Shown: piece after piece, positions 36,097-61,804 of the stretch | Layout: every line of letters begins with the position of its first letter | How positions within the stretch are numbered: the first letter of the stretch is position 1 | Origin: Actinomycetota bacterium | GTDB lineage: Bacteria > Actinomycetota > UBA4738 > HRBIN12 | Direction: 5' to 3' | Assembly: GCA_040004125.1 (NCBI GenBank) | Contig: JBDUBL010000004.1 | Location: forward strand, 1 to 61,804 | DNA: 61,804 nucleotides | Notes under the pieces: generated by a model | The model's input: only the letters and a program-made list of their open reading frames with translations | What the model was told of the DNA's origin: nothing | The model's database searches: none | Translations under genes and position numbers: made by a program

Positions 36097-36963
36097 CTAG
36101 CCGAGCGCGATCAGGACGACGCCCGCGAACGCGGTCATCACACCGGCCACCTGCGGCCGTGACATCCGCTCGTGCAGGAACCCGCGGGCCAGCAGCACGG
36201 TCGAGACCGGGTAGAGCGATCCGACGACCGACACGAGCGCGAGCATGCCGGTCTGAGCCGCCAGCGCGAACGTGATGTTGGCGAGGTTGTCGAATCCCCC
36301 GACCACGAGCAGGGTCGCCGTCTCCTTCCCCGTCGGCGCGCGCTCGTGGGCGCGCCGCGCGATCGCGACGATCACGAACAACGGCACCGACACGACACGG
36401 ATCATGAACGCCGCCCACGGTGCGCTCCCCTGCCCGGCGGCACCAAGGAACGTCACCAGCAAGCCGACGAACACCACGGCAACGAGTGCGTAAGCGAGCC
36501 CGGGCCCGATGCGCCGCCGCGACGGCGGTTCGGGATGCCCCTCGATGTCGGTCGGGTCCGACTCGCGGGCGGCCAGCACGATGCCGCCGATCGCGCAGGC
36601 CATGCCGACGAACTGCCAGGGCGTGGGGCGGTCGCCTTGCGCGAACCCGACGAGGACCGGAACCATGACGGACAAGGACACCGTCGGCGCCACGATGCTC
36701 ATCGGGCCGATCGCCAGTCCCTGGTAGAGCGCCGCGAGGCCGATCGTCCCGGACAGGCCGCCGAGCGCGCCCAAGACGAGGTACCGCATCTCAGGCGCGG
36801 GCTGGCCGAGCGCCAGGATCAGCGCTCCCGTCACGACGAGACCCGCTCCTTGCGCGATCGCCATCACGAGCGCGACGCCGAGGCGCCTGGTGAGCAGCCC
36901 GCCGAGGAAGTCCCCCGTTCCCCAGCTCAGACCGGAGAACAGGGCGAGCGCGAGGGCACCCAT
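36097..36963 (-). CDS. EamA/DMT family transporter
   Basis: WGTGDFLGG, GPMSIVAP, SLYPVSTVLLA, LHERMS; about 10 TM segments. Confidence 0.88.
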   Translation of the reverse strand: MGALALALFSGLSWGTGDFLGGLLTRRLGVALVMAIAQGAGLVVTGALILALGQPAPEMRYLVLGALGGLSGTIGLAALYQGLAIGPMSIVAPTVSLSVMVPVLVGFAQGDRPTPWQFVGMACAIGGIVLAARESDPTDIEGHPEPPSRRRIGPGLAYALVAVVFVGLLVTFLGAAGQGSAPWAAFMIRVVSVPLFVIVAIARRAHERAPTGKETATLLVVGGFDNLANITFALAAQTGMLALVSVVGSLYPVSTVLLARGFLHERMSRPQVAGVMTAFAGVVLIALG

Positions 36964-36966
36964 GTC

Positions 36967-38169
36967 TCAGACGACGCGCACGCCGTCCTTCCAGACCTGC
37001 GCGATCCGCTCCTTGATCGTGTCGAAGGCGAACGGATCGCCATCGACCACGACGACATCGGCGATCTTGCCCGGCTCGAGCGTTCCGAGCCGATCCTCCC
37101 AGCCCATCAGCTCGGCGGCGGAGCGCGTGGACGCATGCAAAGCCTGCTGGGGCGTGAACCCGTTGTTGGCCATATGGGCGAGCTCGTTGAGGTTCCAGCC
37201 GTGCGGCATCACCGCGGCGTCGGTCCCCATCGCGACCTTCACGCCGGCCTCGGCCGCCAGCAGCATCGCGTCGAACTCGGGTCGCCCAAGGCCCTTGAAC
37301 TTCTCGCGGATCTCCGGCGCGAGCTTTTCGTCGTTGGCGAGCTCCTCCGTCGTGTCGCCGGCGGTCAGGGTGGGCACCAGCCAGGTGCCGCGCTCCACCA
37401 TCAACTCGGCACATTCCTGGTCCAGGTATGTGCCGTGCTCGATCGAGCGGACGCCCGCGCGCACCGCGCGCTTAATGCCTTCAGGCCCGTGTGCGTGGGA
37501 CATCACCCAGCGATCGAGGTCCGCGGCCGTGCGGACGATCATGTCGAGCTCGTCCTGGGCGAAATGCGGATGCATCGGGTCATCGGCCGGCGAGAAGAAC
37601 CCGCCGGAAGACGCGATCTTGATCACGTCGGCGCCGGCACGGATCACCTCGCGCACCTTGCGCCGCACACCGTCGATGCCATCGCAGACACCCTCGGGGA
37701 AGCCGGGATACGGCAGCCAGCCGGCGGAGATCCCACCGCTGGGCAACACCTCGTCGTTGTGGCCCGCGGTCTGGCTGAGCATCGTGACGGCCACCTGCAT
37801 CCGCGGCCCGACCAGGAGCCCGTCGCGGACCGCCTGGCGCAACCCGGCGTCGGCGCCGCCCGCGTCACGCACCGATGTGATGCCGAGCTTGATCGTCGTC
37901 AGCAAGTTGGTGGGCGTCTGATAGAAGCCGTAGGAGAACGGGCGATGCTGGATCGTGAGCTCGTCGTCTTCGTAGGTGCCGGTCAGATGCACGTGTGTGT
38001 CGAACAATCCGGGGAGCAGCGCCTTGCCGGCGCAGTCGATTCCCTCGTCGCCGTCGAGCCCGGGCGCAACCTCGACGATCTTTCCGTCCTCGATGGCCAC
38101 ATCGGCGTCGGCCAGTGGTGCCATCGTGCCGTCGAAGACCTTGCCGCCATGGAACACCGTACGACCCAC
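36967..38169 (-). CDS. Metal-dependent amidohydrolase (Xaa-Pro dipeptidase-like)
   Basis: PGLFDTHVH, KIASSGG, HAHG, IEHG, MGTDA; GTG after GGGAGG. Confidence 0.85.
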   Translation of the reverse strand: MGRTVFHGGKVFDGTMAPLADADVAIEDGKIVEVAPGLDGDEGIDCAGKALLPGLFDTHVHLTGTYEDDELTIQHRPFSYGFYQTPTNLLTTIKLGITSVRDAGGADAGLRQAVRDGLLVGPRMQVAVTMLSQTAGHNDEVLPSGGISAGWLPYPGFPEGVCDGIDGVRRKVREVIRAGADVIKIASSGGFFSPADDPMHPHFAQDELDMIVRTAADLDRWVMSHAHGPEGIKRAVRAGVRSIEHGTYLDQECAELMVERGTWLVPTLTAGDTTEELANDEKLAPEIREKFKGLGRPEFDAMLLAAEAGVKVAMGTDAAVMPHGWNLNELAHMANNGFTPQQALHASTRSAAELMGWEDRLGTLEPGKIADVVVVDGDPFAFDTIKERIAQVWKDGVRVV

Positions 38170-38203
38170 GCTGCCTCCCTCGTTGATCCGCTGGGCGCGA
38201 ACC

Positions 38204-38710: not shown

Positions 38711-38789
38711 ACTCCTCCTGGTGCGCTCACGGACGCGTCGCGTTGGTGTCTAGACTCCGCCACGACCCTACCCCGGAGAGGAGCCGGAC

Positions 38790-39968
38790 GTGGACCTGCG
38801 ACTGACGCCCGAAGACGCCGGGTTACAGGTGAAGGCACGCCGTTTCGCCGACGAGGTGCTGCAACCCCTCGAACTCGAGTGCGAAGAACACGACGGTCTG
38901 ACACCGGCCAGCGCCGCCGCTGCGAAGCAGGCCGTTTTGGAATGGGAGTTCCACGCGATCAACCACGCCGAGGCCGACGGCGGTCGGGGGCTGGACACGT
39001 TCCAGGTGATGCTGGTCGAGGAGCAATGGGGTCGCGTGACCGGCGCGCTCTGGGACGTCCCGTGGCGTCCGGCGATCTCGCTGGCCGCCGGCACCGAGGC
39101 GCAGAAGGACCGATTCCTGCGACCCGCGTGCGCCGGCGAGCGGCGCGACGCCTACGCGATCACCGAGGCAGGCGCCGGCTCGGACGTCACGATGGTCGCG
39201 ACAACCGCGAGACGCGACGGGGCCGACTGGGTCCTGCGCGGAGAGAAATGGCACGTGACCAGCGGCGACGTGGCCGACTTCTTCCTCCTGCACGCGCATG
39301 TGGATGGTGATCCGAACAAGGCGTCGATCTTCCTCGTCGACAAGGACACGCTGGGCGTGCGCCTCGTGCGCACCCCGGCGTACACCCACACGTTCGTGTT
39401 CGAGCACCCGATCTTCGCCTTCGACGACGTGCGGGTCGGCGACGATCGACTGCTCGGCGAGGTCGGTCAGGGTTTCGATCTCACGAAGGATTGGTTCGTC
39501 GAGGAGCGGCTGATGATCGGTGCCCGCACGGTTGGCGCGTCGCAGCGGTGTCTGGACGAGGCCCTCGCGTTCGCGACACAGCGGCGCCAGTTCGGCCATC
39601 CGATCGTCGAGTTCCAGGCGATCGAGTTCATGCTGGCCGACATGGCGGTCGAGATCATGGCGGCCAAATCGATGCTGTACCGCGTCTGCTGGGAAGCCGC
39701 CCGCGGCGGGATCGACCGCAAGCAGGTGCACGCGGAGGCCGGCGCCGTGAAGCTGTTCTGCAGCGAGACCGCCGGGCGCGTCGCCGATCGTGCGGTGCAG
39801 ATCTTTGGCGGCCGCGGTTACATGCGGGAGTTCGCGGTCGAGCGCATGTGGCGCGAAGTGCGCGTCGATCGTCTCTGGGAGGGCACCTCGGAGATCCAGC
39901 GCCTCGTGATCGGCAACGAGCTACGCAAGCGTGGTCCCGGCGCCTACGCGGGCTGGCCGACCGCCTGA
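38790..39968 (+). CDS. Acyl-CoA dehydrogenase
   Basis: AYAITEAGAGSD, GEKWHVT, RRQFGHPI, QIFGGRGY, WEGTSEIQR. Confidence 0.92.
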   Translation: MDLRLTPEDAGLQVKARRFADEVLQPLELECEEHDGLTPASAAAAKQAVLEWEFHAINHAEADGGRGLDTFQVMLVEEQWGRVTGALWDVPWRPAISLAAGTEAQKDRFLRPACAGERRDAYAITEAGAGSDVTMVATTARRDGADWVLRGEKWHVTSGDVADFFLLHAHVDGDPNKASIFLVDKDTLGVRLVRTPAYTHTFVFEHPIFAFDDVRVGDDRLLGEVGQGFDLTKDWFVEERLMIGARTVGASQRCLDEALAFATQRRQFGHPIVEFQAIEFMLADMAVEIMAAKSMLYRVCWEAARGGIDRKQVHAEAGAVKLFCSETAGRVADRAVQIFGGRGYMREFAVERMWREVRVDRLWEGTSEIQRLVIGNELRKRGPGAYAGWPTA

Positions 39969-39969
39969 G

Positions 39970-40335
39970 CTAGCGCACCGGGTTCGGCACGTAGCGCTCC
40001 ACCAGATGCAGCGCATTCAAGATGGGGTAGGACAGGGCGACGATGCCGAGCAGGATCGACGCGACCGTCGAGCCGCTGCCCCGGCCACCGAGGCCGCCGG
40101 CGATACCCATCACGAGCGCGATCGCGCCGAAGACGACCGCAAGCGTGCTGAGTTGATCGGCCATCGGGCCACCGTTGGCGATCTGCACCGAGTACGAGCC
40201 GAGGATCGAGGCGTCCGGGTTGAACTGGTAGATCCACAGGATCACCGAGAACGCCGCGCCGATCGCACCGACCAGCGTGCCGACGGTGCCCATCGGGTTG
40301 CTCGTCTTGCCGCTGCTGCCGAACAAACCTGCCAT
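39970..40335 (-). CDS. Small hypothetical membrane protein (3 TM)
   Basis: Three hydrophobic segments, high-GC codon usage. Confidence 0.6.
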   Translation of the reverse strand: MAGLFGSSGKTSNPMGTVGTLVGAIGAAFSVILWIYQFNPDASILGSYSVQIANGGPMADQLSTLAVVFGAIALVMGIAGGLGGRGSGSTVASILLGIVALSYPILNALHLVERYVPNPVR

Positions 40336-40384
40336 AGGCCCTGATGATGACGACCCGTGCGGCGGACGGCAAGCAGGCGAAAGC

Positions 40385-41299
40385 CTATGCCCGAAGCGCG
40401 TATGCCACGGCGGCGATATCGGCCGGGGCGGTGCCACAGCATCCCCCGATCAACCGAGCGCCCCCGGAACGAAGGGTTCGGGCGAGGGGCCCGAAGCCCT
40501 CGGGCACCACGTCGCCCGTCCATGCCCTGGCCACGGGGTCCCACGTCGCGCCCCGATTCGGGTAGGCAACGAGTGGCTTTGCCGTGACTGCGGCCGCGCG
40601 CCTAAGCAGCCCGACCACGGCCGCCGGCGGGGTGCAGTTGACACCGATCGCGACGACCTGCGGGCTGCCCGACACCACGTCGACCGCTTCCTCGATCGAC
40701 GTGCCGTCGTGCAGATGCCCCTCGTCCCGACACGAGAAGCTCACCCACGCCGGCATATCGCCGATCGTGGCGAGCACCTCGACGAGCGCCTCGGTCTCCA
40801 CGATCGAGGGGATCGTCTCGATCGCGAGCAGGTCGGGACCGGCCGACGCCAGCGCCTCTACCCGTGGCAGGTGAAACGTCCGCAGCGCATCGCCTGCACT
40901 CGACGGCGGGCCGAGGCCGTAGTCGCCCGTGTACTCGGCGCCGTTCGCGAGGATCGCGCCGTACGGTCCGACCGACGCCGCGACACGGACGTCGCGGTCG
41001 CCGGTCGCCTCACGGGCGAGCTCGACGCTGCGTCGAAGCAACGAAGTGGCCGCGGGTCTGTCGAGCCCGCGCGCGGCGAGGCCCTCGAAACTGGCCTGGT
41101 AGGAGGCGCCGATCACCACATCAGCGCCCGCCTCGATATAGGCGCGGTGTACCTCGACGATCAGCGCCGGATCGTCCAGGAGTACGCGCGCGGACCACAG
41201 CGCGTCCCGCAGGTCGGCACCACGGCGCTCGAGTTCCGTCGCGAGCCCGCCGTCCAGGACGACGGAGCCCGGGTACGCGGCGAACGGATCATCGATCAC
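40385..41299 (-). CDS. mmuM: Homocysteine S-methyltransferase
   Basis: LDGGLATELE, ASVGPYGA, ETIP, GVNC and IGGCCGT zinc ligands. Confidence 0.9.
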   Translation of the reverse strand: MIDDPFAAYPGSVVLDGGLATELERRGADLRDALWSARVLLDDPALIVEVHRAYIEAGADVVIGASYQASFEGLAARGLDRPAATSLLRRSVELAREATGDRDVRVAASVGPYGAILANGAEYTGDYGLGPPSSAGDALRTFHLPRVEALASAGPDLLAIETIPSIVETEALVEVLATIGDMPAWVSFSCRDEGHLHDGTSIEEAVDVVSGSPQVVAIGVNCTPPAAVVGLLRRAAAVTAKPLVAYPNRGATWDPVARAWTGDVVPEGFGPLARTLRSGGARLIGGCCGTAPADIAAVAYALRA

Positions 41300-41326
41300 G
41301 CTGGCAGCGTACCCGGGCCTTGTGGA

Positions 41327-41972
41327 TCAGCCGACGTGCAGGTGATATGTCGCGTCGAACGCGCCGTTGGCACCGCCGGCGAACGAGACCGCGGCGTACA
41401 GCTCGTGATCGCCGGGCCGCAGCGGGTGCAGGATCGTGAACTCACCGACGATCGCGGTACGGACCGACCCCACCGGATACCCGATGATCGCGTTGAAGAA
41501 GCTGCCGTCCTCGGCGTTGACGTCAAACGCACCCGTGACGGTCATGGTTCGTCCGAGCGGGCGTCCGTCGAACGTCAAGATGTCGGACCCCGGGTCGGGG
41601 GCGAACGCGGCGATCGCCGCCGCTTCGAGCTCCGCGTCAGTCGGCCCGTCGATCCCGATCGTTGTAAAGAAGCCGGCGTGCGTGAGCACGCGTGCCGACC
41701 GGCACGGCGCAATCGAACTCGAGGCCGACGTCGATCGGCGCCGCGATGAAGAAGACGCCCCCAACCACGTCGCCGCAGTCGCCGTCGGTAAGCGAGGCGA
41801 TCAGCGGGTTCGATCCGCCGCCGAACGCCCATTGGGACCACGCCTTCGCCCAGTCGACGTGCGATTGCTCGAAGGCGCGCGAACGCGCCGGCATCGGCGT
41901 CCCAGCATGCGCGGCCGGCGCCGCGATCAGCAGCATCGCCCCCGCAGCGATACACAGGATGGTTCGTCTCAG
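41327..41972 (-). pseudogene. Secreted hypothetical protein with frameshift at about 41690
   Basis: Signal-like LRRTILCIAAGAMLLIAAPAAHAG (CTG at the expected start), continuing to CAVPVGT; the next frame resumes VLTHAGFF...YHLHVG*. Confidence 0.6.
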
Positions 41973-42040
41973 AGAGGCCCCTTCGCCCAGACCTCCAGAC
42001 GTCGTTGCTCGCGAAGGCTATGCCCTGGCTGCTTCCGAAG

Positions 42041-44155
42041 TCAACCGCGAGGTTCGACGAGGGCGTCGACCGCAACGCACTCGAGGGGCGTGACGATCAC
42101 CGGGTTCACGTCGAGGGCCACAAGAAGATCGCCGAGGTCGTCCGCCAGCACAGACAGGCGCGAGACCGCTCGCGCGAGACCGCCCACGTCGGCGGGAGGC
42201 GCACCGCGCACGCCGGCGAGGATCGAGCTCATCGCAAGGCCGTCGATCAGCCGACGGGCCGCATCCTCGCCGATCGGTGCCAGCGCCAGGCGACGATCGC
42301 GCAGGACCTCGACGAGCACGCCGCCCGCGGCAACCAGCACCAGGGGGCCGAACGTCGGATCGACGATCACGCCAAGCGCGATCTCGACTCCTTCCGGCAC
42401 CATCGCCGCGACGGAAACCTCGGGGCCGAGACGACCGGCCACGTCGGCGTAGGCGTCCCGGACCGCGGCGCCGTTCGACAACCTGACGCGCACGCCGCCG
42501 ACGTCGGACTTGTGGGTGATGCCGGGCGTGGCCGTCTTGAGCACCACCGGGTACCCGACCGCCTCTGCGGCCGCGAACACCGCCTCGATCGTCGTGGCCG
42601 ATCGAGCCGCCACGACGGGCACGCCGTAATCGGCAAGGAGCGCAAGCCCGTCCAGCTCGGACAAGACCTCACCGGTCGCGAGACGCTCCCGCCATCGCGC
42701 ACGAACCGCTTCGTCCACCCGCGCGAGGGACGGGGCATTGGGACGGGTGCGCCATGTGGCGTCCGCCAACAGATGCGCCAGGGCGCGAAGCCCGGTGTCC
42801 GTCCCCTCGAGCACGGGGATACCCCGGTCACGCAGCATGCGCGCCTCATCCTGTGACACGGCGCTCGCCAGGTTCGACAACACGCAGAACGGCTTGTCGG
42901 TGCCCTCGAAGCTGTCGATCGCGATCTGGAGGTATCCCTCGTTGTACGGCTCGCCCTGGTGGGTCATGTCGATGCAGAAGACGCTGGCGCTGACCTCGGC
43001 GTCGTCCGCGAATGCCGCGAATGCCTCGAGGAAGATCGCGTCCCCGTCGATCCCCGTGCCCCACGCGTCGAGGGGGTTTTCGGCATCCATGCCGGGGTCG
43101 AGCACGCCTTGGATCCGCGCGATCGTGGCATGGCCGATCTTCGCGAACGGCACGTCGAGATCGGCAGCCAGGTCGACCACCATCGCGCGTTCGCCACCGC
43201 TGTCGTGGACGCTCGCGATCCCGCTTCCGCCGCGGGCACGGCGTGGCGAGGAGAACAGCTCCATCGTGTCGGCCATCTCATCGAGCGTGCGCACCTCGTG
43301 CACGCCGTAGGCGTCGAACAGCGCCTCGTACGCCCCGTGCTCCCCCGCGAGCGCGCCCGAGTGCGCGGTGACCATCGCACGCGAGCCCTCGGTACGCCCG
43401 ACCTTCATCGCCAAGACGGCCACCCCGCGCTCGGTCGCGCGCGCGAGCTGCGCCCGGAACCGCTCCGGGTCGCGCACGGTCTCGAGGAGCAGCGCCACCA
43501 CCCGGGTGCTCTCGAGTCCCAGCGCGTATTCCAGGTAATCGGCATGCGTGGTCACGACCTCCTGGCCGCTGGAGACCAGCAGGTTGAAACCGATCCCCCG
43601 GTCGGAAAAGGCGATCGCCGAGAACGCCGACCCGCTGTGCGACAGGAACGTCACCGGACCGTGGCGCAGGTGCTCCGGCGTGAGGAAGCCCGTCGCCCGA
43701 ACACGGGATTCCTGGTTCATGAAACCCATGCCGTTTCCGCCGCACAGCGCCATGTCGTTCGCCACGGCGATCGCGCACAGCCGTTCACGCAGACTCGGTC
43801 CGTCGGCCGGCTCCTCATACAACGACGAGAACGTGACCGCGCTACCGGCGCCGGCCGCAGCCGCATCGGTCAGCGCCTGCTCGACCCGCGCGTTGGCCAC
43901 GCCGAGGATCGCGAGGTCGACGGGCTCGGGGACATCGAGGATCGAGGGGTAACAGCGAAGACCGGCGACCTGATCGTAGCCCGGGTTCACTGGGTAGATC
44001 GTGCCGTCGAACCCCCCACGTCGGAGCTCGGCCAACATGGACTCGCCGAGCGACCCCGGCTTGATCGAGGCGCCGACGACGGCGATCGAACGCGCCTCCA
44101 ACATGCGCTGGATCGGCGTACGGCGGTCGCCGGTGTGCGAGGGCTCCTGTGCCAC
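42041..44155 (-). CDS. Acetate-CoA ligase (ADP-forming) family acyl-CoA synthetase
   Basis: IAVVGAS, YPVNP, SHSGS, KVGRTEG, HSGALAG, NPLD, HKSDVGGV, ALDVNP. Confidence 0.88.
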   Translation of the reverse strand: MAQEPSHTGDRRTPIQRMLEARSIAVVGASIKPGSLGESMLAELRRGGFDGTIYPVNPGYDQVAGLRCYPSILDVPEPVDLAILGVANARVEQALTDAAAAGAGSAVTFSSLYEEPADGPSLRERLCAIAVANDMALCGGNGMGFMNQESRVRATGFLTPEHLRHGPVTFLSHSGSAFSAIAFSDRGIGFNLLVSSGQEVVTTHADYLEYALGLESTRVVALLLETVRDPERFRAQLARATERGVAVLAMKVGRTEGSRAMVTAHSGALAGEHGAYEALFDAYGVHEVRTLDEMADTMELFSSPRRARGGSGIASVHDSGGERAMVVDLAADLDVPFAKIGHATIARIQGVLDPGMDAENPLDAWGTGIDGDAIFLEAFAAFADDAEVSASVFCIDMTHQGEPYNEGYLQIAIDSFEGTDKPFCVLSNLASAVSQDEARMLRDRGIPVLEGTDTGLRALAHLLADATWRTRPNAPSLARVDEAVRARWRERLATGEVLSELDGLALLADYGVPVVAARSATTIEAVFAAAEAVGYPVVLKTATPGITHKSDVGGVRVRLSNGAAVRDAYADVAGRLGPEVSVAAMVPEGVEIALGVIVDPTFGPLVLVAAGGVLVEVLRDRRLALAPIGEDAARRLIDGLAMSSILAGVRGAPPADVGGLARAVSRLSVLADDLGDLLVALDVNPVIVTPLECVAVDALVEPRG

Positions 44156-45825: not shown

Positions 45826-45913
45826 CTGAACGACCAGTCAACTCACCCTCGGTGCCTACTCAGGGGTTGACGCCGCAGGTCAAACGGGTACAGTGCGTTG
45901 AACGGTGGGTCAA
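45826..45913. promoter_or_regulatory. Divergent promoter with two TGAACG-N4-GTCAA operator boxes
   Basis: CTGAACGACCAGTCAA 45826-45841 and TTGAACGGTGGGTCAA 45898-45913; TetR promoter TTGACG 45867 - N16 - TACAGT 45889. Confidence 0.6.
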
Positions 45914-45961
45914 TCCTGCCGTGGGAGCATCGTCCGGTTTGCCCCCTATTCAGGAGTGCGG

Positions 45962-47159: not shown

Positions 47160-47236
47160 CCCGCGGCCAAGCCCGGCTCGACATCGTCATAGTCCGGTCG
47201 TTTTCGCACATGACCATGTTCCCAGGTCGGGGTCAC
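47156..47236 (-). other. 26-aa mini-ORF or gene remnant coupled at both ends
   Basis: GTG 47236 overlaps the GcvT-family stop (GTGA); TGA 47156 overlaps the PRTase ATG (ATGA). Confidence 0.4.
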
Positions 47237-52645: not shown

Positions 52646-53067
52646 CCGGTCGTGAACGCGCGGAGCTCGGCGGCGTGCTCCTCGTAGTGTTCGAAGGTCT
52701 CGCCGGTGAACTCCTCGACCGCCGCATCGGTGAGCGTCGGCAAGGCTCGAAGCCCGGTACGCGCGCGCTCCCGGTTGTGCTCGGACCGCACGATGATCTC
52801 GTCCCAACTCATGCCGCGGCCATCTTCGATCACCTTGTCGTTGACGTCGTCCCAGTCCTGGTCTTCGAGCGTCTCACCGCGTGCGATCCGCTCGAGGGCG
52901 TCGCCCACGTAGCCCGCCCAGTAGCCGCAGTGCCAGACGAGATCCTGCGTCGACCAACCGGGGACGACCCCTTCCCGGTCACGCTGATCGTCGGGCACCG
53001 CCGCGAACGCATCCACGAACGCCAGCCACGCCTGATCCTCTCGCTGCAACAGTTCCTCGGTGTTCAT
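52642..53067 (-). CDS. DinB / maleylpyruvate-isomerase-like four-helix bundle protein
   Basis: GWSTQDLVWHC and EHYEEH motifs; GAGGGGG RBS. Confidence 0.75.
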   Translation of the reverse strand: MNTEELLQREDQAWLAFVDAFAAVPDDQRDREGVVPGWSTQDLVWHCGYWAGYVGDALERIARGETLEDQDWDDVNDKVIEDGRGMSWDEIIVRSEHNRERARTGLRALPTLTDAAVEEFTGETFEHYEEHAAELRAFTTG

Positions 53068-53246
53068 CGTGCCCCCTCGATCCCGGAGCCTCGACGATAC
53101 CTGCCTCGACGCGGGGCGGGATCGGGGCGTCAGATGACGCCGATCCTGGTCACTGCGCTCGCGATCGTGGTTCAGGAGTCGGCGCGACTGCCGTTCATCC
53201 AGCGCCTCAGTCGCCACCGCGCAGCCGCAGATCCGAGCAACGAGTC

Positions 53247-54641: not shown

Positions 54642-54694
54642 AGTCTAGGTGTCGTTTCTCACTGGGAACAAGCAGCTCTCGTATCGTGAGAACC
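54642..54694 (-). promoter_or_regulatory. Promoter with TCTCAC/GTGAGA operator array (copy B)
   Basis: GGTTCTCACGATACGAGAGCTGC-TTGTTC-N18-TAGACT; gapless 32/53 match to 59565-59617. Confidence 0.75.
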
Positions 54695-54696: not shown

Positions 54697-55872
54697 TCAC
54701 CAGCGCACCGAGAGCGTCGCAGGGCCTCGATACTCCCAGCCGCGAAACACCGGTGCGTGGTCGGGGTCGAGACGCAACCGCGGGAAACGCTCGAGCAGCA
54801 GCGACAGGCCGGTCCGCATCTGTATCCGAGCGAGTTGATGGCCCACGCAAAAATGCGGCCCGAACCCGAACGCGGCGTTCGCGTGCTTCGGTCGTTCGAT
54901 GTCGAAGACGTCGGCGGCGTCGCCCCACACGGTCTCGTCGCGATTCGCCGACGGGATCATCAACCCGACGCCTTCACCAGGCGGGATCGTTATGCCCGCA
55001 ACGGTCGCCTCGCGACCCGCGACCCGCCCCTGCGTCCCGATCGGCGAGACCCAGCGCAAGCCCTCGTCGACCGCCCGGCGGACCAGCGTCTGTGGGTCCG
55101 CCCGCACGGCCGCGAGCTGGTCGGGATGCTCGAGCAAGCCGACAACCGTCGAGCCAAGCCCGTGCGCCGGCTCCTGCAAGCCGCCGATCAACGCCACCTT
55201 GAGCGTCGGGAGGAAGCCGCGCATTCGCGTATCGAGGTCGCCGTCCTCTGCATGCAGCATCTCGGAGAGCATCGAGTCGTCGGGCTCCGCGAGCAGCCGC
55301 GCCAGACGCGGGCGGAGCACCGCGTCGACCTCGGCGGCCGTCGCGTCCGCGATGGATTGTTTCTCGGGATCGTTCTCGTAGTTCGACGTACCTCCCGCGA
55401 TATCGTGGAACCACCTGCGCAGCGTCGGTGCGTCGAGATGCTCGGGCAGGCCGATCACGCGGGCGAGCGACAGCACGGCCAGCGGTTCGCAATACGCGTC
55501 CATCAGATCGGCCGTGCCCTCGGCGGCAAGTCCGTCCAGCAGCTCGGTCGCGATGGCGGCGACGACATCGGGCGCCGTCTGCTCGATCCGGCGTGGGCGG
55601 AGCGTGCGTTCCATCGGCTCGCGCCAGTGTTCCTGTTCGTTGCCGTCGACCGTGAGCACGGTCGCGCCGCCGCAGGTGCGGTCTAGCGGCGAGCCAGCGA
55701 ACCCCGCTGGGAAACGCGCCGGATCCTCGGCCGCCTCGACCAGATCCTGCCACCGGGTGACGAACCAGAGGCCGACCGAAGGGACCCACGCGATGGGCGC
55801 CTCGCGCCGAAGACGTGCATAGACGGGGTAGGGGTCGCGCTCGAGCTCTTCGACGGTCACGCTCTCGGTCAC
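54697..55872 (-). CDS. Cytochrome P450, GcoA/CYP255-like
   Basis: EGLRW (ExxR), FGFGPHFCVG heme Cys, I-helix GGLQEPAH, N-terminal VTVEELERDPY, C-terminal RGWEYRGP. Confidence 0.9.
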   Translation of the reverse strand: MTESVTVEELERDPYPVYARLRREAPIAWVPSVGLWFVTRWQDLVEAAEDPARFPAGFAGSPLDRTCGGATVLTVDGNEQEHWREPMERTLRPRRIEQTAPDVVAAIATELLDGLAAEGTADLMDAYCEPLAVLSLARVIGLPEHLDAPTLRRWFHDIAGGTSNYENDPEKQSIADATAAEVDAVLRPRLARLLAEPDDSMLSEMLHAEDGDLDTRMRGFLPTLKVALIGGLQEPAHGLGSTVVGLLEHPDQLAAVRADPQTLVRRAVDEGLRWVSPIGTQGRVAGREATVAGITIPPGEGVGLMIPSANRDETVWGDAADVFDIERPKHANAAFGFGPHFCVGHQLARIQMRTGLSLLLERFPRLRLDPDHAPVFRGWEYRGPATLSVRW

Positions 55873-58184
55873 GCCGATGCGCGACTCCCACGGGCGACGG
55901 CGTCGAGCACGCGTTCCGGTGTGATCGGAAGGGTCGTGGGTCGCGCGCCGACCGCATCGGCGATCGCCGCCGGGATCACCGCGATCGGCGGCCCGATCGG
56001 CGGCTCGCCGATCCCGCGGGCGCCGAACGGTCCGAGGCCCTCCCCCGACTCCAGGATCACGGTCTCGATGTCGGGCACGTCGGTCGCCGTGGGGATCATG
56101 TACTGGAACAACCCCGGCGTGAGGTTCACCCCCTCCTGCACGACGACGTCCTCCAGCAGCGCCTGCCCGAGACCCTGGACGACGGCGCCCGAGATCTGAC
56201 CCTCGACGCTCATCGGGTTGATCGCCCGCCCGACGTCGTGGGCCGCGATGTAGCGGAGGATCCGGACCTCGCCGGTATCCAGATCGACCTCCACATCGGC
56301 GAGGTGCGTGCCAAACGTGAAGTCCGGGAAGATGCGGTCGCCGTCGAGGTCGCGCGTAACCTCGGTTCCCTTGGGACCGAAGAAGGTGCCGAGTGCTTCG
56401 ATCGGCACGTTGCGGCGGCGGCAGGCCTGCAGCGCCGTGAGCAGCGGGGTCGCACCGTCGGGCCCGACGATCTCGCTCGGTTCGATGCGCAGCGAGTCGA
56501 TCGGCTGGCCGGTGTCGGCCGCCACGGCGCCGAGCACCTGGTCGCGCAACAGCACGGCGGCCTCGTACGTCGCGTTGCCCGACATCAGCAGCTGGCGTGT
56601 CGCGGTGGTGGTGCCCGCCAGCGGCGTCAACGCGGAGTCGCCGAAGTGCACGCTGATCCGGTCCATGTCGACGGCGAGGATCTCGCTCGCGATCTGCCCC
56701 AGCGACGAGGCCTGTCCTCCGCCGATGTCGGGCACGCCGCAGCGCACCGTCAACGACCCGTCCATCTCAAAGCCGATCCAGGCCGCCGAGCTGTCGTTCA
56801 GCCAGACGAGCCTCCCGTAGGACTGCATGTTCGAGGCGATTGCACGACCGACCGCTTTGCGGGGGCCACTGGGGACTGGTTTGTCGCCGGCGCGCTCCCG
56901 CACGGCGTCGATCGTCTGGGCGAGTTGCACCTCGGTGATGATCTCCTGGCCGACCGGCAGACGGTCGCCACGCGCCAGGGCGTTGCGCTTGCGGATCTCG
57001 CCGGGGTCGATCCCGAGCCTGCGCGACACCTCGTCGATCTGCGACTCGTAGCCCAGCACCATCTGCATCCCGCCGAAGCCGCGGAACGCCGAGGTTGGCG
57101 GGTTGTTCGTGTAGGCGGTCTTGGCGCGGATCCGCACGTTGGGCACGCGGTAGGGGCCGCACGCGTGCACGGTCGAGTACAGCAGCACCAACGCGGAAAG
57201 GTAGGCATAGGCGCCGGCGTCGGACACGATCTCGATGTCGTGTGCGAGCAGCGTCCCCTCGGCGTCGGCGGCGGTGCGATAGCGCATCACGTTGCGGTGG
57301 CGCTTGGCGCGGGCCAGGAGCGACTCGTTGCGGGTCCACAGCATCCGCACGGGCTTCCGGGTGCGGTGCACGGCGATCGCCAGATACGGCTCGACCGTCA
57401 TGTCCTCTTTGCCGCCGAAGCCGCCGCCCACATAGGGCGCGATCACCCGTACCTTGGCATCGGGCACACCCAGGATCTTCGCGACGTCGCGGTAATGCTC
57501 GACCACCTGGGTGGCCACCCGCAGGTTCAACACGCCGTCGTCGTCGAGCCACCCGACGCCGGCCTCGGGCTCGAGGTAGGCGTGATCGACGAACTGCGTG
57601 CGATAGGTCTCCTCGACGACCACGGCGGCGCCGGCGAACGCCTCGTCGACGTCGCCGCGGTCGATGTGCCACTCAGCCAGCAGGTTGCCGCCCTCGTGCA
57701 CCGACGGTGCGTCATCGGCGAGCGCAGCCTCAGGATCGCTCACGACCGGCATGTCTTCGTACTCGACCTCAACCAGCTCGCAGGCGATCGCGAGCGCGTC
57801 CTCGGTCTCGGCGATCACCAGCGCGATCGGCTCGCCATGGAACCGCACCCGGTCGGTGGCGAGCACCTGCATGCTCGCCTGCAACGCGCCGACTGCGATC
57901 GTCTGGCCGGGCACGTCGACGCGGATCTCGTTGTTCGGCACGTCCTCGCCGAGCAGCACGGAGATCACCCCTGGGACCGCGACCGCCGCGGTGACGTCGC
58001 GCCGGGTCAGCCGGGCGCTCGGCACCTGGGAGCGAACGAGCCGCGCGTGCAACATGCCCGCGAACGCCAGATCGCCGGCGTAGCGCGTCGTGCCGGCGAT
58101 CTTCTCGGCCTGATCGTGGCGCGCGAGCGGCTGGTGGACGACCCGAAGCTCTTCGATCTTGGAGGTGTGGATCTCACCGGTCAT
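55869..58184 (-). CDS. Xanthine dehydrogenase family molybdopterin-binding subunit
   Basis: GGGFGGK, AFRGFG, GQISG, GIGEPP; ATGA overlaps at both ends. Confidence 0.92.
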   Translation of the reverse strand: MTGEIHTSKIEELRVVHQPLARHDQAEKIAGTTRYAGDLAFAGMLHARLVRSQVPSARLTRRDVTAAVAVPGVISVLLGEDVPNNEIRVDVPGQTIAVGALQASMQVLATDRVRFHGEPIALVIAETEDALAIACELVEVEYEDMPVVSDPEAALADDAPSVHEGGNLLAEWHIDRGDVDEAFAGAAVVVEETYRTQFVDHAYLEPEAGVGWLDDDGVLNLRVATQVVEHYRDVAKILGVPDAKVRVIAPYVGGGFGGKEDMTVEPYLAIAVHRTRKPVRMLWTRNESLLARAKRHRNVMRYRTAADAEGTLLAHDIEIVSDAGAYAYLSALVLLYSTVHACGPYRVPNVRIRAKTAYTNNPPTSAFRGFGGMQMVLGYESQIDEVSRRLGIDPGEIRKRNALARGDRLPVGQEIITEVQLAQTIDAVRERAGDKPVPSGPRKAVGRAIASNMQSYGRLVWLNDSSAAWIGFEMDGSLTVRCGVPDIGGGQASSLGQIASEILAVDMDRISVHFGDSALTPLAGTTTATRQLLMSGNATYEAAVLLRDQVLGAVAADTGQPIDSLRIEPSEIVGPDGATPLLTALQACRRRNVPIEALGTFFGPKGTEVTRDLDGDRIFPDFTFGTHLADVEVDLDTGEVRILRYIAAHDVGRAINPMSVEGQISGAVVQGLGQALLEDVVVQEGVNLTPGLFQYMIPTATDVPDIETVILESGEGLGPFGARGIGEPPIGPPIAVIPAAIADAVGARPTTLPITPERVLDAVARGSRASA

Positions 58185-58669
58185 CGCGCGATCCCCTGCG
58201 CCTGCGCGTCTTCGATCGCATCCACGATGTCCGTGTATCCGGTGCAGCGGCACAGATTGCCGTGCAGTTGCTCTCGGATGTCGGCGCGGGACAGCGGCTC
58301 GGTCGCGTCGCGCAGCATCGCGTGCGCGCAGAGCAACATGCCGGGGGTGCAGAAGCCGCACTGTGCGGCGTGATGCTCGTGGAAGCGACGTTGCAGCGGG
58401 CCGAGGGAGCCGTCGGGCTCGCAGAGCCCGGCGGCGGTCGTGATCGCGGCGCCGTCGACCTGGGCCGCGAGCACGATACAGGCGCTCGCGGGCTCGCCGT
58501 CGACCAGAACCGTGCAGGCGCCGCAGACACCTTCGCCGCAGCCGTACTTCGGGTCGGTGACGTCGGCGAGATCGCGCAGCCAGCGCAGCAAGGACACGTG
58601 CCCGCCGGTCGTGCGGGTCGTGGGGGCACCGTTCACGGTGAGCGTGACCGTCACGTCGGTAGCGGTCAT
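58181..58669 (-). CDS. Xanthine dehydrogenase family 2Fe-2S subunit (CoxS-like)
   Basis: GCGEGVCGAC, QCGFCTPG, LCRCTG. Confidence 0.92.
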   Translation of the reverse strand: MTATDVTVTLTVNGAPTTRTTGGHVSLLRWLRDLADVTDPKYGCGEGVCGACTVLVDGEPASACIVLAAQVDGAAITTAAGLCEPDGSLGPLQRRFHEHHAAQCGFCTPGMLLCAHAMLRDATEPLSRADIREQLHGNLCRCTGYTDIVDAIEDAQAQGIAR

Positions 58670-59526
58670 GCGGCGACCCCGCGTGTGACGGCGTCGGTCA
58701 GCGCCCGCACTGCGAGCACCCGGGCGAGGTGCCGACGGTGCTCGGCGGTCGCGCTCACATCCGAAACCGGATCGATGCCCTCGATCGGCCCGATCCGATC
58801 CGCCAGCGTCGTCGCGTCGGCTCCCTCCACCGCGATCTCCACGGCGCCCAGCCGCTTCGGGCGTTCGGCGACGCCGGCGAGACCGAGCCGCGACTCGACG
58901 ACGCGCCCGTCTGCGACGCGGACCAGCGCGGCCGCCGCGCAGAGCGCGAAGTCGCCCCGGCGCCGCGAGACCTCGGCGAATCCCCAGCCCCACCCCGGGC
59001 CGAGCACCGGCACCTGCACCCGTTCGAGCAGCTCATTTTCGGCCAGCGACGTCGTGAAGTAGCTCTCGTGGAAATCGGTCGCCGCGACGGTTCGTGTCGT
59101 GGTGCCGTCGGTCAGGTCGTAGGTTGCGCCGGCGACGACCATCGCAAGCGGCAGCTCGGCCGCCGGATCCGAATGCGCCAACGAACCGCCCAGGGTCCCG
59201 CGCACACGGATCCGCGACGAGCCGACCCATCGAGCGGCCGCGGCCACCAGTGGCTGGCCGGCCGCGACGATCGGGTCGCGCTCGAGCTCGGCGTGCGTCC
59301 TCAACGCGCCGATCGAAAGGTATCCGTCGCGCTGCGCGATCTCGCTCGCCCCAGCGATATGCGTGACGTCGATCAGCGCCTCGAGGTCCAGCACGCCCAG
59401 GTTCATCATCGGCAGGAGGCTCTGCCCGCCGGCGAGGACCTTGGCGCTGCCGGCACCCTGGCGCAGCATCGCGGCCGCGTCGCCGAACGACGCGGCTCTC
59501 TCGTATCGGAACGGCTTCACGAACAC
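58666..59526 (-). CDS. Xanthine dehydrogenase family FAD subunit (CoxM-like)
   Basis: LAGGQSL, IRVRGTLGGSLAHSDPAAELP, RRRGDFA. Confidence 0.92.
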   Translation of the reverse strand: MFVKPFRYERAASFGDAAAMLRQGAGSAKVLAGGQSLLPMMNLGVLDLEALIDVTHIAGASEIAQRDGYLSIGALRTHAELERDPIVAAGQPLVAAAARWVGSSRIRVRGTLGGSLAHSDPAAELPLAMVVAGATYDLTDGTTTRTVAATDFHESYFTTSLAENELLERVQVPVLGPGWGWGFAEVSRRRGDFALCAAAALVRVADGRVVESRLGLAGVAERPKRLGAVEIAVEGADATTLADRIGPIEGIDPVSDVSATAEHRRHLARVLAVRALTDAVTRGVAA

Positions 59527-59564
59527 GCTCGTCCCCCATGTTCCTCGGCCGGCCGCGCGAGCGG

Positions 59565-59617
59565 ATGATAGAGATGCTTTCTCACCAGGCTCAACCGCAT
59601 CTCACGACGTGAGAAGC
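59565..59617 (-). promoter_or_regulatory. Promoter with TCTCAC/GTGAGA operator array (copy A)
   Basis: GCTTCTCACGTCGTGAGATGCGG-TTGAGC-N18-TATCAT; perfect TCTCAC-GTC-GTGAGA palindrome. Confidence 0.75.
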
Positions 59618-59620
59618 GGT

Positions 59621-60727
59621 CTACACGGCGAGTGGAGTCGCCTGCATACCGGTCGCGGCCGCGACGCCTTCGTTCGTGAGGGCGCCGTCCCACGTGTTCA
59701 CGCCCAGCGCCAGCGCCGGGTCCTCGTGCACGGCCTGCTGGATGCCGGCGCCCGCGATCGCCAACACATACGGCAGCGTCACGTTCGTCAGCGCGTACGT
59801 CGAGGTGCGCGGCACCGCGCCGGGCATGTTGCCGACGCAGTAGTGCACGACGCCATCCACCACATAAACCGGATCCGCGTGTGTTGTGACGTGCGACGTC
59901 TCGAAGCAGCCGCCCTGGTCGATCGAGATGTCGACGAGCACCGCGCCGGGCTGCATCGCACGCACCTGTTCGGCGCTGACGAGGTGCGGAGCTTTCGCGC
60001 CGGGCACCAGCACCGCGCCAACCACCAGATCGGCACGCAGCACCAGGTCCTCGATCGCCAACCGAGACGACATGACGGTCTGGATCCGCCCGCGCCAGAT
60101 CCGGTCGATCTCGCGCAAACGGTCGACGTTCTTATCCACGACGACCACCTCGGCCTGCATCCCCGCCGCGATCTCGGCGGCGTTCCAGCCCGCCATGCCA
60201 CCGCCGAGGACAACCACCGTCGCGGGTGCCACGCCACTGGCACCGCCCATCAGCACGCCTCGGCCGCCTTGCGGTCGCTCCAGGTATTTGGCGCCTTCCT
60301 GCGGAGCCATCCGGCCCGCGATCTCCGACATCGGCGCGAGCAGCGGGAGTCTGCCGTCGGGCAGCTGCACCGTCTCGTAGGCCACGGCGCGCACGCGACG
60401 CTCCGTGAGGAACCGCGTCAACCGTTCGTCGGCGGCCAGGTGCAGATAGGTGAACAGCACGTGGTCGGAGCGGAACCGCTCGTACTCCTCGGGCTGCGGT
60501 TCCTTGACCTTCACGATCAGATCAGCCGCCGCGAACACCGCATCGGCGTCGGCCCCGATCGATGCGCCGGCGGTCACGTAGCGATCGTCGGGTATCGCCG
60601 AGCCGAGGCCGGCGCCGGCCTGCACGATGACCGCGTGCCCAGCGTGCGTCAGTTCGCGAACGCCTTCGGGGGTGGCCGCCACCCGGTACTCGTGGTTCTT
60701 CACCTCGGTCGGGATCCCGATCCGCAT
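59621..60727 (-). CDS. ald: Alanine dehydrogenase
   Basis: IGIPTEVKNHEYRV, KVKEP, LFTYLHLA, PMSEIAGR, GAVLVPGA, DQGGCFETS, NMPGAVP. Confidence 0.95.
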   Translation of the reverse strand: MRIGIPTEVKNHEYRVAATPEGVRELTHAGHAVIVQAGAGLGSAIPDDRYVTAGASIGADADAVFAAADLIVKVKEPQPEEYERFRSDHVLFTYLHLAADERLTRFLTERRVRAVAYETVQLPDGRLPLLAPMSEIAGRMAPQEGAKYLERPQGGRGVLMGGASGVAPATVVVLGGGMAGWNAAEIAAGMQAEVVVVDKNVDRLREIDRIWRGRIQTVMSSRLAIEDLVLRADLVVGAVLVPGAKAPHLVSAEQVRAMQPGAVLVDISIDQGGCFETSHVTTHADPVYVVDGVVHYCVGNMPGAVPRTSTYALTNVTLPYVLAIAGAGIQQAVHEDPALALGVNTWDGALTNEGVAAATGMQATPLAV

Positions 60728-60730
60728 CGG

Positions 60731-61804
60731 CTACCTCATCTCGTCGAGCGCGGCCCCGAGGCCGGCGGCCAGTTCGTCCACCTCGTCGTCGGTCAACGTC
60801 AACGGCGGCGAGATCTGGATCGCGCCGGTCGCCAGCGTGCGCGTCATGATGCCGTTGGCGCGGCACGCCGGCACGACCCTGCCGACCAGACCTGCGTCGG
60901 CGGCGAGCCGCTCGGGGTCGAGTTGCACCGCCGCCAGCACCCCCGTGCCTGCGCGAACCTCGCTGACCAGGTCGTGATCGGCGAGGGGGCGAAGCCCCTC
61001 GGCGAGGTGCGCCTCCAGCTCGACGGCGCGAGCGAGGATGTCGTCGTTCACCATGATGTCGAGGTTCGCAAGCGCCGCCGCGGCGACCGCGGCGTGCCCC
61101 GAGTACGTGTAGCCGTGGCGGAACATGCCCGCTCCTTCGGCGAAGAACGGCCGCCACACGCTCGGAGCCACGAGCACGGCGCCCAGCGGCAGGTACCCGC
61201 TCGTGATGCCCTTGGCGCAGGTGACGAGGTCGGGATCGAGGTCCCACCGGGTGCTCGCGAACCAGTCGCCGGTCCGCCCGAACCCAGTGATCACCTCGTC
61301 GGCCACGAACAGCACGCCGGTCTCGCGACACACCGCGCGCGCCTGTTCCAGATAACCGGGCGGTGGGGCGTAGACCCCGCCTGCACCGATCACCGGCTCA
61401 CAGAAGAACGCCGCGACGCGCTCGGCGCCCAGTCGCTCGATCGTCGCACGCAACGCGTCTGCGTCGTCCCAGGGCACCTCCTCGACGTCGGGCAGCAGCT
61501 GCCCGTAGCCGACGGCGTTCGGGGCGATGCCGGCCAGGGACGTGCCGGCGATATGCATGCCGTGGTAGGCGCGCTCGCGACGCAGCAAGACCGTCCGATC
61601 CGGCTGACCGACGAGGTCCCAGTAGCGGCGCACCATCTTGGTCGCGGTGTCGATCGAGTCGGACCCACCGCTGGTCAGGAATACCTTCGCGTCGGCCATC
61701 GGCGCGATCCCGGCGACCCGGTCGGCCAGTGCCGACACCGCCGGGTTGGTCAGATCCTGGAAGGTGGAATACGACTCCAGCGCGCGCATCTGGTCGGCGA
61801 CCGC
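60731..61804 (-). CDS. Class III (omega-amino acid/polyamine-type) aminotransferase, 5' end beyond the window
   Basis: SGGSDSID, AYHG, EPVIGAGG, DEVITGFGRTG, AKGITSGY, HGYTYSGH; frame stays open to the window edge. Confidence 0.9.
   Translation of the reverse strand, partial: AVADQMRALESYSTFQDLTNPAVSALADRVAGIAPMADAKVFLTSGGSDSIDTATKMVRRYWDLVGQPDRTVLLRRERAYHGMHIAGTSLAGIAPNAVGYGQLLPDVEEVPWDDADALRATIERLGAERVAAFFCEPVIGAGGVYAPPPGYLEQARAVCRETGVLFVADEVITGFGRTGDWFASTRWDLDPDLVTCAKGITSGYLPLGAVLVAPSVWRPFFAEGAGMFRHGYTYSGHAAVAAAALANLDIMVNDDILARAVELEAHLAEGLRPLADHDLVSEVRAGTGVLAAVQLDPERLAADAGLVGRVVPACRANGIMTRTLATGAIQISPPLTLTDDEVDELAAGLGAALDEMR

Follow-up and report, generated by a model that had tools for sequence, protein, structure and literature searches.

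The 61,804-base window examined here is the whole of contig C64 (JBDUBL010000004.1) in a metagenome-assembled genome (MAG) of an actinobacterium (2.14 Mb in 108 contigs, 80% complete), and it carries at 36–62 kb a gene island that an initial annotation had described as a candidate catabolic system for methylated amines or alkaloid-like compounds. In our view these 25 kb are probably a mosaic of at least four modules, A to D, which are inherited and regulated separately and would all serve aminated or N-methylated small molecules; with the same measure of confidence, as part of one explanation, we regard the island as specific to the lineage of an uncultured soil actinobacterium in the Thermoleophilia/Solirubrobacterales group. 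The earlier proposal holds to the extent that the N-methyl/amine theme is coherent and that a core is conserved, but the idea of one 25-kb system is not supported. The accompanying reservation, that the genes may represent several pathways, turns out to be the better reading, given the scatter of the modules in relatives and the presence of at least two regulons.

Gene content, operon junctions, operators and module distribution were all observed directly. Because the high GC content of the window (66–71%) yields many spurious open reading frames (ORFs), genes were called by third-position GC; they were then scanned against Pfam and NCBIfam, with the curated NCBIfam cut-offs for equivalogs. 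Every enzyme class in the inventory of the initial annotation was recovered by these domain searches (Table 1), and one protein alone, the homocysteine S-methyltransferase MmuM, exceeds an equivalog cut-off. Module A consists of a BetI-type TetR regulator, a COG1233 flavoprotein, a fused ADP-forming acyl-coenzyme A (CoA) synthetase (ACS) and a flavoprotein of the dimethylglycine/sarcosine-dehydrogenase family that joins DAO and GcvT domains (DAO-GcvT); module B of a Rieske oxygenase and an atypical arginase-fold protein (ARG); module C of two class-III transaminases (AT2 and the HemL-like AT_HemL), alanine dehydrogenase (Ald), a molybdenum hydroxylase (CoxMSL) and a cytochrome P450; and module D, which is peripheral, of MmuM, an acyl-CoA dehydrogenase (ACAD), an amidohydrolase and an EamA transporter.

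Transcription units and operators

Inspection of start codons divides the region into at least eight transcription units. AT2-Ald and COG1233-ACS are close pairs, each with 3 nucleotides between its genes; CoxM-CoxS-CoxL-P450 is a unit in which every stop/start pair overlaps; and the Rieske, ARG and DAO-GcvT genes form another, with a 32-nucleotide gap followed by a GTGA overlap, to which the gene for a phosphoribosyltransferase (PRT)-like protein may also belong. AT_HemL defines a unit with the DinB gene downstream of it, the MOSC and TetR genes are separate units, unk145-MmuM-unk155 forms one unit, ACAD has its own, and amidohydrolase-EamA makes up a further one.

The two distinct operator families named in the initial annotation are both present in the window, and both recur at equivalent promoters in relatives. 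One is the palindrome TCTCAC-N3-GTGAGA, found before AT_HemL with two mismatches and, as a perfect copy, immediately preceding the promoter-like site of coxM (59594–59565). Exact or one-mismatch copies stand at the equivalent coxM or AT_HemL promoters of four relatives (G024, G036, G027 and G017), and none with at most one mismatch was found in the 40–60 kb compared from each of five genomes lacking module C. The other family, TGAACG-N4-GTCAA, has two exact sites that span the promoters of the divergent TetR and COG1233 genes. Of 24 related loci, 13 have this motif between the TetR and COG1233 genes when one mismatch is allowed, against just 8 occurrences in the ~430 kb that remain. Each operator family is kept at promoters of its own, which makes at least two regulons.

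Distribution of the modules in related genomes

Marker genes were searched across 61 related genomes, of which 36 belong to the same genus, and Rieske neighbourhoods were compared over 40–60 kb of DNA around each ortholog; the MAGs with related loci are from soil and bear the labels Actinomycetota, Thermoleophilia or Solirubrobacterales. The whole gene order is kept only in G024, G036 and G021, the closest genomes showing about 92% protein identity. Scattering of the sub-clusters among relatives, which the initial annotation had named as what would speak against a single system, is found in part. Rieske orthologs (78–92% identity) are present in most of the 36 same-genus genomes, and in three of these (G001, G005 and G006) the gene stands alone among adenylate cyclases, a luciferase-like monooxygenase and a major facilitator superfamily (MFS) transporter, unrelated genes that are uninformative as to function. 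G014 and G002 retain AT2-Ald-DinB-(MOSC)-Rieske-DAO_GcvT-ARG followed by TetR-COG1233-ACS, and lack CoxMSL-P450-AT_HemL as well as all genes from MmuM to EamA.

In 21 further same-genus genomes the DAO-GcvT and COG1233 orthologs lie no more than about 10 kb apart. The Rieske gene adjoins DAO-GcvT in 10 further genomes and is located elsewhere in at least five unambiguous cases (G005, G006, G035, G027 and G017), and modules A and B are joined in no more than about half of the genomes. P450 orthologs are found in only 11 of the 61 related genomes; P450, CoxMSL, AT_HemL and AT2/Ald remain together in G027, G017, G011 and G038. The order in G027 and G017 is Ald-CoxMSL-x-AT_HemL-P450-aldehyde dehydrogenase-DinB-MOSC-DAO_GcvT and then TetR, with neither Rieske nor ARG, and G038, from another family, has AT2-CoxMSL, AT_HemL, a PotD-type binding protein and P450 on a contig without DAO-GcvT and COG1233. 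The MmuM-to-EamA part is confined to the nearest relatives.

A scan for ARG over 185,579 species genomes returned at least 561 relatives, of which the best 80 loci (L041–L120) were analysed and fall into three contexts. About 30 loci have the order aldehyde dehydrogenase-Rieske-(DAO_GcvT)-ARG-(PfkB kinase, nucleoside hydrolase)-TetR-COG1233-ACS-(PF04185 phosphoesterase)-ACAD. A second context contains short-chain dehydrogenases/reductases (SDRs), a metallo-beta-lactamase, an FGGY kinase and sulfatases, and a third an HD-domain protein, an MFS transporter, a family-5 binding protein, an alcohol dehydrogenase and a glutathione S-transferase; neither offers a functional clue. Matches within 10 kb of ARG that cover 60% or more of the query with an identity of 40% or more were counted in the 80 loci for TetR (31), COG1233 (28), ACS (26), Rieske (24), DAO-GcvT (19), P450 (3) and CoxL (3). 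ACAD genes, with about 51% identity, flank 24 of them, and MmuM lies near ARG in only 4.

The COG1233–GcvT pairing

The pairing of a COG1233 flavoprotein with a GcvT protein extends well beyond this locus. Homologues of the COG1233 protein with 39–40% identity occur on Rhizobiaceae plasmids, and a stand-alone GcvT follows them on plasmids of Shinella, Rhizobium and Ensifer. Rhizobium sp. SL42 (L130), Shinella zoogloeoides p1 (L132) and Ensifer adhaerens (L133) have in common a Rieske alpha subunit, a class-III transaminase, a TetR regulator and a divergent COG1233-COG1233-aminomethyltransferase (GcvT) set; the annotation of the first two adds an ATP-binding cassette (ABC) importer, and the Ensifer record is unannotated. 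This conserved locus appears to be uncharacterised. A small ORF of about 82 amino acids follows GcvT in all three, and an NADH:flavin oxidoreductase lies beside the locus in S. zoogloeoides. In Shinella sumterensis an operon encodes enoyl-CoA hydratase, an ADP-forming CoA ligase with 39% identity to the ACS of the window, 3-hydroxyacyl-CoA dehydrogenase, COG1233 and GcvT. The MAG under study itself has a tandem COG1233 pair divergent from a stand-alone GcvT on contig C72 (15255–19778), and a COG1233 paralog followed by a class-III transaminase on contig C83 (1014–3892).

This recurrent pairing of COG1233 with a folate-binding GcvT protein is the strongest sign in our data, and it suggests a real, undescribed N-demethylation core. 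Both DMGDH (dimethylglycine dehydrogenase), a DAO-GcvT fusion, and heterotetrameric sarcosine oxidase have a layout comparable to the COG1233 and GcvT pairing. A bolder proposal is that COG1233 supplies the dehydrogenase half in a hitherto unrecognised class of N-methyl or N-alkyl amine dehydrogenases, which would work with GcvT, either stand-alone, as in Rhizobiaceae and on contig C72, or, as here, DAO-fused. With ACS, ACAD, the Rieske oxygenase and an omega-transaminase it would serve a methylated omega-amino acid or polyamine-type compound by a CoA-dependent route kept from Actinomycetota to Alphaproteobacteria. We put this forward tentatively, as conceivable rather than probable. The association of TetR, COG1233, CoA ligase and GcvT also offers a bacterial handle on an orphan flavoprotein family that is said to include human PYROXD2.

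Possible functions of the modules

In the scheme that we favour, in which chemistry and substrates are all inferred, module A would be the conserved core: TetR would bind the two TGAACG-N4-GTCAA sites and control COG1233 and the ADP-forming CoA ligase, the flavoproteins would oxidise N-methyl or N-alkyl C–N bonds, the GcvT domain would pass the one-carbon unit to tetrahydrofolate, and a carboxylate product would be converted to its CoA ester, to enter beta-oxidation-type steps involving ACAD. COG1233 is the best-conserved gene of the locus (84–97% identity across the genus). It shares a broad family annotation with mammalian PYROXD2 and the bacterial COG1233 'phytoene dehydrogenase-like' proteins, with carotenoid genes absent from its vicinity. 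It reaches only 227.7 against a cut-off of 1000 with the CrtO model, 52.6 bits with the CrtI structure 4dgk and, over its N-terminus, 30 bits with a 6-hydroxynicotine oxidase structure. In a large protein search with this query, every match was a near-identical metagenome protein under a generic name. ACS aligns over its full length with a 4-hydroxybutyrate-CoA ligase model (286 bits, cut-off 1300). DAO-GcvT carries all four domains of its family, and among solved structures it comes closest to DMGDH of rat and human (433 and 424 bits, the alignment at 433 bits being full-length) and to Arthrobacter dimethylglycine oxidase (392 bits).

Single in-frame stops in many DAO-GcvT orthologs raised the question of recoding, which we set aside because all three stop codons occur and the open frames approximately equal the match lengths; the alignments probably run through terminal stops. 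The MAG holds 6 COG1233 copies, 5 of them paralogs of the window gene, and at least 4 DAO-GcvT copies, and related genomes have up to 8 DAO-GcvT and 3–13 COG1233 paralogs each. Soil Thermoleophilia are abundant and uncultured, and their unusually many N-demethylase paralogs point to methylated amines as a likely major food source.

Module B would be accessory: a Rieske oxygenase of the CntA/Stc2 type might remove the first methyl group from, or split, a quaternary or tertiary amine and, co-transcribed with the atypical arginase-fold hydrolase, feed DAO-GcvT. The nearest solved structures to the Rieske protein are carnitine monooxygenase CntA (144 bits) and stachydrine demethylase Stc2, and its active-site motif E-N-x-x-E-C-x-H-C-x-x-x-H-P (ENYNECLHCPQVHP) aligns with those of CntA (DNYMECYHCGPAHP) and Stc2 (ENNRECYHCSSNHP). 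Judged by this motif, it belongs with CntA, Stc2 and GbcA, and it is an ortholog of none of them. Its scores against the CntA and Stc2 structures are only 117–144 bits, and a gene for a CntB-type reductase was found neither in the locus nor elsewhere in the MAG, which is 80% complete. That MAG (G000), which encodes Rieske oxygenases and P450s, gave no match to an FNR-type reductase (PF00175), an absence that is not proven at this completeness. A Pyr_redox_2 reductase-like gene divergent from AT_HemL was noted in G011 (L125, 15496–16647).

ARG has the PF00491 fold of arginase, agmatinase and guanidinobutyrase. Aligned to Thermus arginase it has GGCC in place of GGDHS, with Cys at the first His ligand, and the catalytic His of SGNxHGMP is replaced (PTGEAADMP), but the other four Asp/His metal ligands are kept in DxHxD and DxD motifs. 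GGCC recurs in 50 of 58 homologues. By this alignment ARG lacks the canonical six-ligand set and the catalytic His, and its metal site or chemistry may differ from that of known ureohydrolases. The clade with Cys for a metal-binding His, in which the catalytic His is missing too and which has at least 561 matches in the genome collection, is a separate enzymological lead.

Module C would be a second regulon under the TCTCAC-N3-GTGAGA operator, combining a pyruvate-dependent omega-transaminase and Ald with a CoxMSL-type molybdenum hydroxylase and the HemL-like transaminase, to which relatives add an aldehyde dehydrogenase; its SyoA/GcoA-like P450 probably demethylates by the peroxide shunt. The nearest solved structures to AT2 are putrescine/polyamine:pyruvate transaminases (250 bits), and its orthologs adjoin Ald in G024, G036, G014, G002 and G011 and CoxM in G038; we infer that Ald recycles pyruvate and alanine for a pyruvate-dependent transaminase. 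The three-subunit CoxLMS set is complete, with flavin adenine dinucleotide (FAD), 2x[2Fe-2S] and molybdenum cofactor subunits, and reaches no substrate-specific equivalog; CoxL is nearest in structure to 4-hydroxybenzoyl-CoA reductase, nicotinate dehydrogenase and 6-hydroxypseudooxynicotine dehydrogenase. AT_HemL scores above the NF000818 subfamily cut-off (438.7 vs 398) and below that of the hemL equivalog (429 vs 527.3), and it is 79–96% identical in every P450-bearing genome.

The P450 aligns over its full length with SyoA (8u09, 276 bits) and GcoA (237 bits) of Amycolatopsis, and its I-helix sequence GGLQEPAHG aligns with GGLQEPGHQ of SyoA and GAMQEPGHG of GcoA, the Gln-Glu pair and the C-terminal motifs being kept. 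In contrast to those enzymes, it is translationally coupled to CoxMSL, always accompanied by the HemL-like transaminase, and without a GcoB/SyoB-type reductase: no gene for a three-domain reductase (GcoB/AgcB/SyoB) was found in the window, and no PF00175 match in the genome. SyoA demethylates by the peroxide shunt only, and its I-helix Gln-Glu pair is essential (PMC11842817). Catalysis driven by H2O2 may thus explain the missing reductase, and a reductase-less SyoA-like P450 coupled to a molybdenum hydroxylase is a further enzymological lead.

Two observations on relatives touch module C. An aldehyde dehydrogenase gene lies between AT_HemL or P450 and DinB in G024 (L022, 6830–8971) and G027 (L121, 6232–7728) and is absent from the corresponding junction in the window (53247/53250), where the step may have been lost or be encoded elsewhere. 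In G038 a PotD/PotF-type solute-binding protein is encoded directly downstream of the HemL-like transaminase (L123, 11115–12383), and its presence in the Cox-P450 module hints at a polyamine-like substrate.

Comparison with known pathways and alternative explanations

The statement of the initial annotation that the gene set matches no described pathway was borne out. The Rieske protein scores 186.7 against the GbcA model NF058607 (cut-off 670) and aligns only over residues 34–238, its N-terminal half; TetR scores 86.8 against the BetI model TIGR03384 (cut-off 201.3), its BetI-type match being limited to the C-terminal domain PF13977; the best NCBIfam match of CoxL is pucD, at 509.6 against 783.65; and the 61 related genomes contain no GbcA equivalog above the NF058607 cut-off. 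Searches of the literature on PYROXD2 function, on Rieske with ureohydrolase and DMGDH, on actinobacterial Rieske betaine demethylases and on COG1233 with aminomethyltransferase brought up nothing describing this locus.

With the glycine betaine system of Pseudomonas and others (GbcAB, DgcAB or DMGDH, and Sox, with BetI) the window has in common a Rieske N-demethylating oxygenase, a folate-linked flavoprotein demethylase to follow it and a BetI-type TetR nearby. A lineage version of the route from choline or glycine betaine to glycine, set among unrelated neighbours, would make the Rieske protein a non-orthologous glycine betaine monooxygenase, DAO-GcvT a dimethylglycine or sarcosine dehydrogenase and TetR an analogue of BetI, with COG1233 replacing choline dehydrogenase and the aldehyde dehydrogenase of relatives acting on betaine aldehyde. 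The best NCBIfam names (GbcA, BetI and soxA/GcvT-family models) and the closeness of DAO-GcvT to DMGDH structures agree with such a route, as do the relatives that have an aldehyde dehydrogenase upstream of Rieske and a PF04185 phosphoesterase (phospholipase C family) beside the locus, and the lack of canonical GbcA in the related genomes means that an analogue would be needed. We nevertheless judge it unlikely. Every score is far under its equivalog cut-off, the Rieske match to GbcA covers half the protein, and no GbcB/CntB-type reductase was found by the PF00175 search of the 80%-complete MAG; the arginase-fold protein co-transcribed with Rieske and DAO-GcvT, like the tightly coupled CoA ligase and ACAD, goes unexplained, and the numbers of DAO-GcvT and COG1233 paralogs per genome make many substrates possible. 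Compared with the betaine system, the window has no equivalog-level component and no GbcB, and has an arginase-fold protein, COG1233 and an ADP-forming CoA ligase in addition.

A single dedicated pathway from AT2 to EamA is less probable again, and we give it little credence. It would degrade an N-methylated, methoxylated N-heterocyclic (alkaloid-like) compound by Mo-hydroxylation, O-demethylation, N-demethylation, hydrolysis of ring or side-chain C–N bonds, transamination and CoA-dependent degradation. In its favour, a single stretch carries all the units, most of them on the same strand, their order is shared by G024, G036 and G021, and six further same-genus genomes have modules A and C no more than 20 kb apart; CoxL resembles nicotinate and nicotine-pathway hydroxylases, and a DAO-GcvT enzyme, MABO, is known from nicotine catabolism. 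The pAO1 pathway of Paenarthrobacter nicotinovorans (Ndh/Kdh, MABO, amine oxidase and SSADH) has a similar mix of a CoxLMS hydroxylase, DAO-GcvT and amine/aldehyde steps, but the likeness is at family level only: the window lacks 6-hydroxynicotine oxidases and 2,6-dihydroxypseudooxynicotine hydrolase, its sole alpha/beta hydrolase being a 160-residue fragment, and adds P450, Rieske and transaminases. The modules, moreover, part company in relatives, the region is divided among at least eight transcription units with two different operator families, MmuM is an ordinary equivalog, the amidohydrolase and EamA are limited to the closest genomes, and the aldehyde dehydrogenase of G024 and G027 is missing. 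Least probable of all is the salvage or catabolism of methylated purines or modified nucleosides, in which the demethylases would strip N- and O-methyl groups, a xanthine-dehydrogenase-like molybdenum enzyme oxidise the base, MOSC reduce N-hydroxylated bases and the PRT-like protein salvage the base. Xanthine dehydrogenase subunits are the best NCBIfam matches of CoxL, MOSC and PRT-like genes are in the window, and in relatives the genes between ARG and TetR encode a PfkB kinase and an inosine-uridine nucleoside hydrolase; these genes, however, are the variable ones, outside the conserved core, the Rieske protein groups with quaternary-amine enzymes (the caffeine demethylases NdmA/B are not named among its 29 PDB matches), and the transaminases, Ald and CoA ligase are left without a role.

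Several points count against the mosaic of separately inherited modules and the functions that we propose for them. Absence calls in relatives are partly blurred by MAG fragmentation, and a neighbourhood kept within one order may in part be inherited synteny rather than functional coupling. The modules could cooperate on related compounds, because they are co-located in the window, G024, G036 and G021 and partly in G027, G017 and G011. COG1233 could act on a C–C bond, like CrtI or RetSat, and not on C–N; the hydrolase role of ARG is uncertain because two canonical catalytic residues are missing; and, MmuM apart, no enzyme is equivalog to a characterised one.

Peripheral genes and flanking sequence

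Table 1. Predicted genes and operator-like sites of the island, by position in the window
Feature	Position	Strand	Basis and remarks
AT2, class-III omega-transaminase	60731..61804	-	PF00202; 5' end cut by contig end
Alanine dehydrogenase (Ald)	59621..60727	-	PF01262 + PF05222; 3 nucleotides downstream of AT2
Palindrome TCTCAC-GAC-GTGAGA, perfect	59600..59614	.	Exact match; upstream of promoter-like site before coxM
CoxM-like FAD subunit, molybdenum hydroxylase	58666..59526	-	PF00941 + PF03450
CoxS-like 2x[2Fe-2S] subunit	58181..58669	-	PF01799 + Fer2; start overlaps coxM stop
CoxL-like molybdopterin subunit	55869..58184	-	PF02738, PF20256, PF01315; ATGA overlap with coxS
CYP255-type P450 (SyoA/GcoA-like)	54697..55872	-	GTGA overlap with coxL
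Palindrome copy TCTCGT-ATC-GTGAGA	54677..54691	.	2 mismatches; before HemL-like transaminase
AT_HemL, HemL/GSA-aminomutase-like class-III aminotransferase	53247..54587	-	PF00202
DinB_2 / mycothiol-dependent maleylpyruvate-isomerase-like small protein	52642..53133 (start approximate)	-	PF12867
MOSC-domain protein	51881..52645	+	PF03473 + PF03476; divergent from Rieske gene
Rieske oxygenase alpha subunit, quaternary-amine / N-demethylase group	50654..51802	-	PF00355 + PF00848; ATG at 51802 with GAGGAG ribosome-binding site
Atypical arginase-fold protein (ARG)	49728..50621	-	PF00491 at 104 bits
DAO-FAO_M-GCV_T-GCV_T_C flavoprotein (DAO-GcvT)	47233..49731	-	Pfam; GTGA overlap with ARG
190-residue protein, weak type-I PRT signature	46587..47159	-	No Pfam match; pyrE domain model 39.7 bits, below cut-off
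BetI-type TetR regulator	45905..46576	+	PF00440 + PF13977; divergent from COG1233 gene
Two TGAACG-N4-GTCAA sites	45827-45841 and 45899-45913	.	Exact; span divergent TetR and COG1233 promoters
COG1233 / CrtI-like FAD oxidoreductase, 539 residues	44159..45778	-	Weak PF01266, PF01593, PF13450
Fused ADP-forming (NDP-forming) acyl-CoA synthetase (ACS)	42041..44155	-	PF13380, PF13607, PF13549; 3 nucleotides after COG1233 gene
Unknown 145-residue ORF (unk145)	41327..41764	-	No family match; no homologue in relatives
MmuM homocysteine S-methyltransferase, peripheral	40385..41299	-	NF007020 equivalog, 355.6 vs 215
Unknown 155-residue ORF (unk155)	39970..40437	-	No family match; clusters with ORFs from 5 other loci
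Acyl-CoA dehydrogenase (ACAD)	38790..39968	+	PF00441, PF02770, PF02771; NCBIfam equivalogs all far below cut-offs
Alpha/beta-hydrolase fragment, 160 residues	38204..38686	-	Partial PF12697; upstream of amidohydrolase
Amidohydrolase, Xaa-Pro-dipeptidase-like	36967..38169	-	PF01979; NF051886 290.9 vs 500 cut-off
EamA-family transporter	36097..36963	-	PF00892

The smaller genes of the island vary more in their occurrence. MOSC is present in G036, G002, G027 and G017 and absent from G024 and G014. The DinB protein reaches 30 bits against the TIGR03083 domain, below the cut-off, and its gene is kept beside MOSC or Rieske in G014, G002, G027 and G017. The PRT-like gene is restricted to the closest genomes, relatives having the nucleoside hydrolase and PfkB kinase at the same position.

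At its right-hand end the cluster is truncated at 61804 within AT2. Beyond AT2 the close relative G024 has a DUF6282 gene and a divergent aldehyde dehydrogenase, followed by an IclR regulator, which is a candidate for the protein acting at the TCTCAC-N3-GTGAGA palindrome, and by an SDR and an ABC permease; a corresponding continuation past 61804 (the AT2 N-terminus, DUF6282, divergent aldehyde dehydrogenase and IclR) was not found in the assembly. In module D, amidohydrolase and EamA were found only in G024 and G036, and the alpha/beta-hydrolase fragment, for which no counterpart was found in any relative, is possibly a gene remnant. Just upstream of the island, at 29314–33777, lie three tandem paralogs of DAO-family FAD oxidases, colinear in G024, which may share the theme of amine oxidation.

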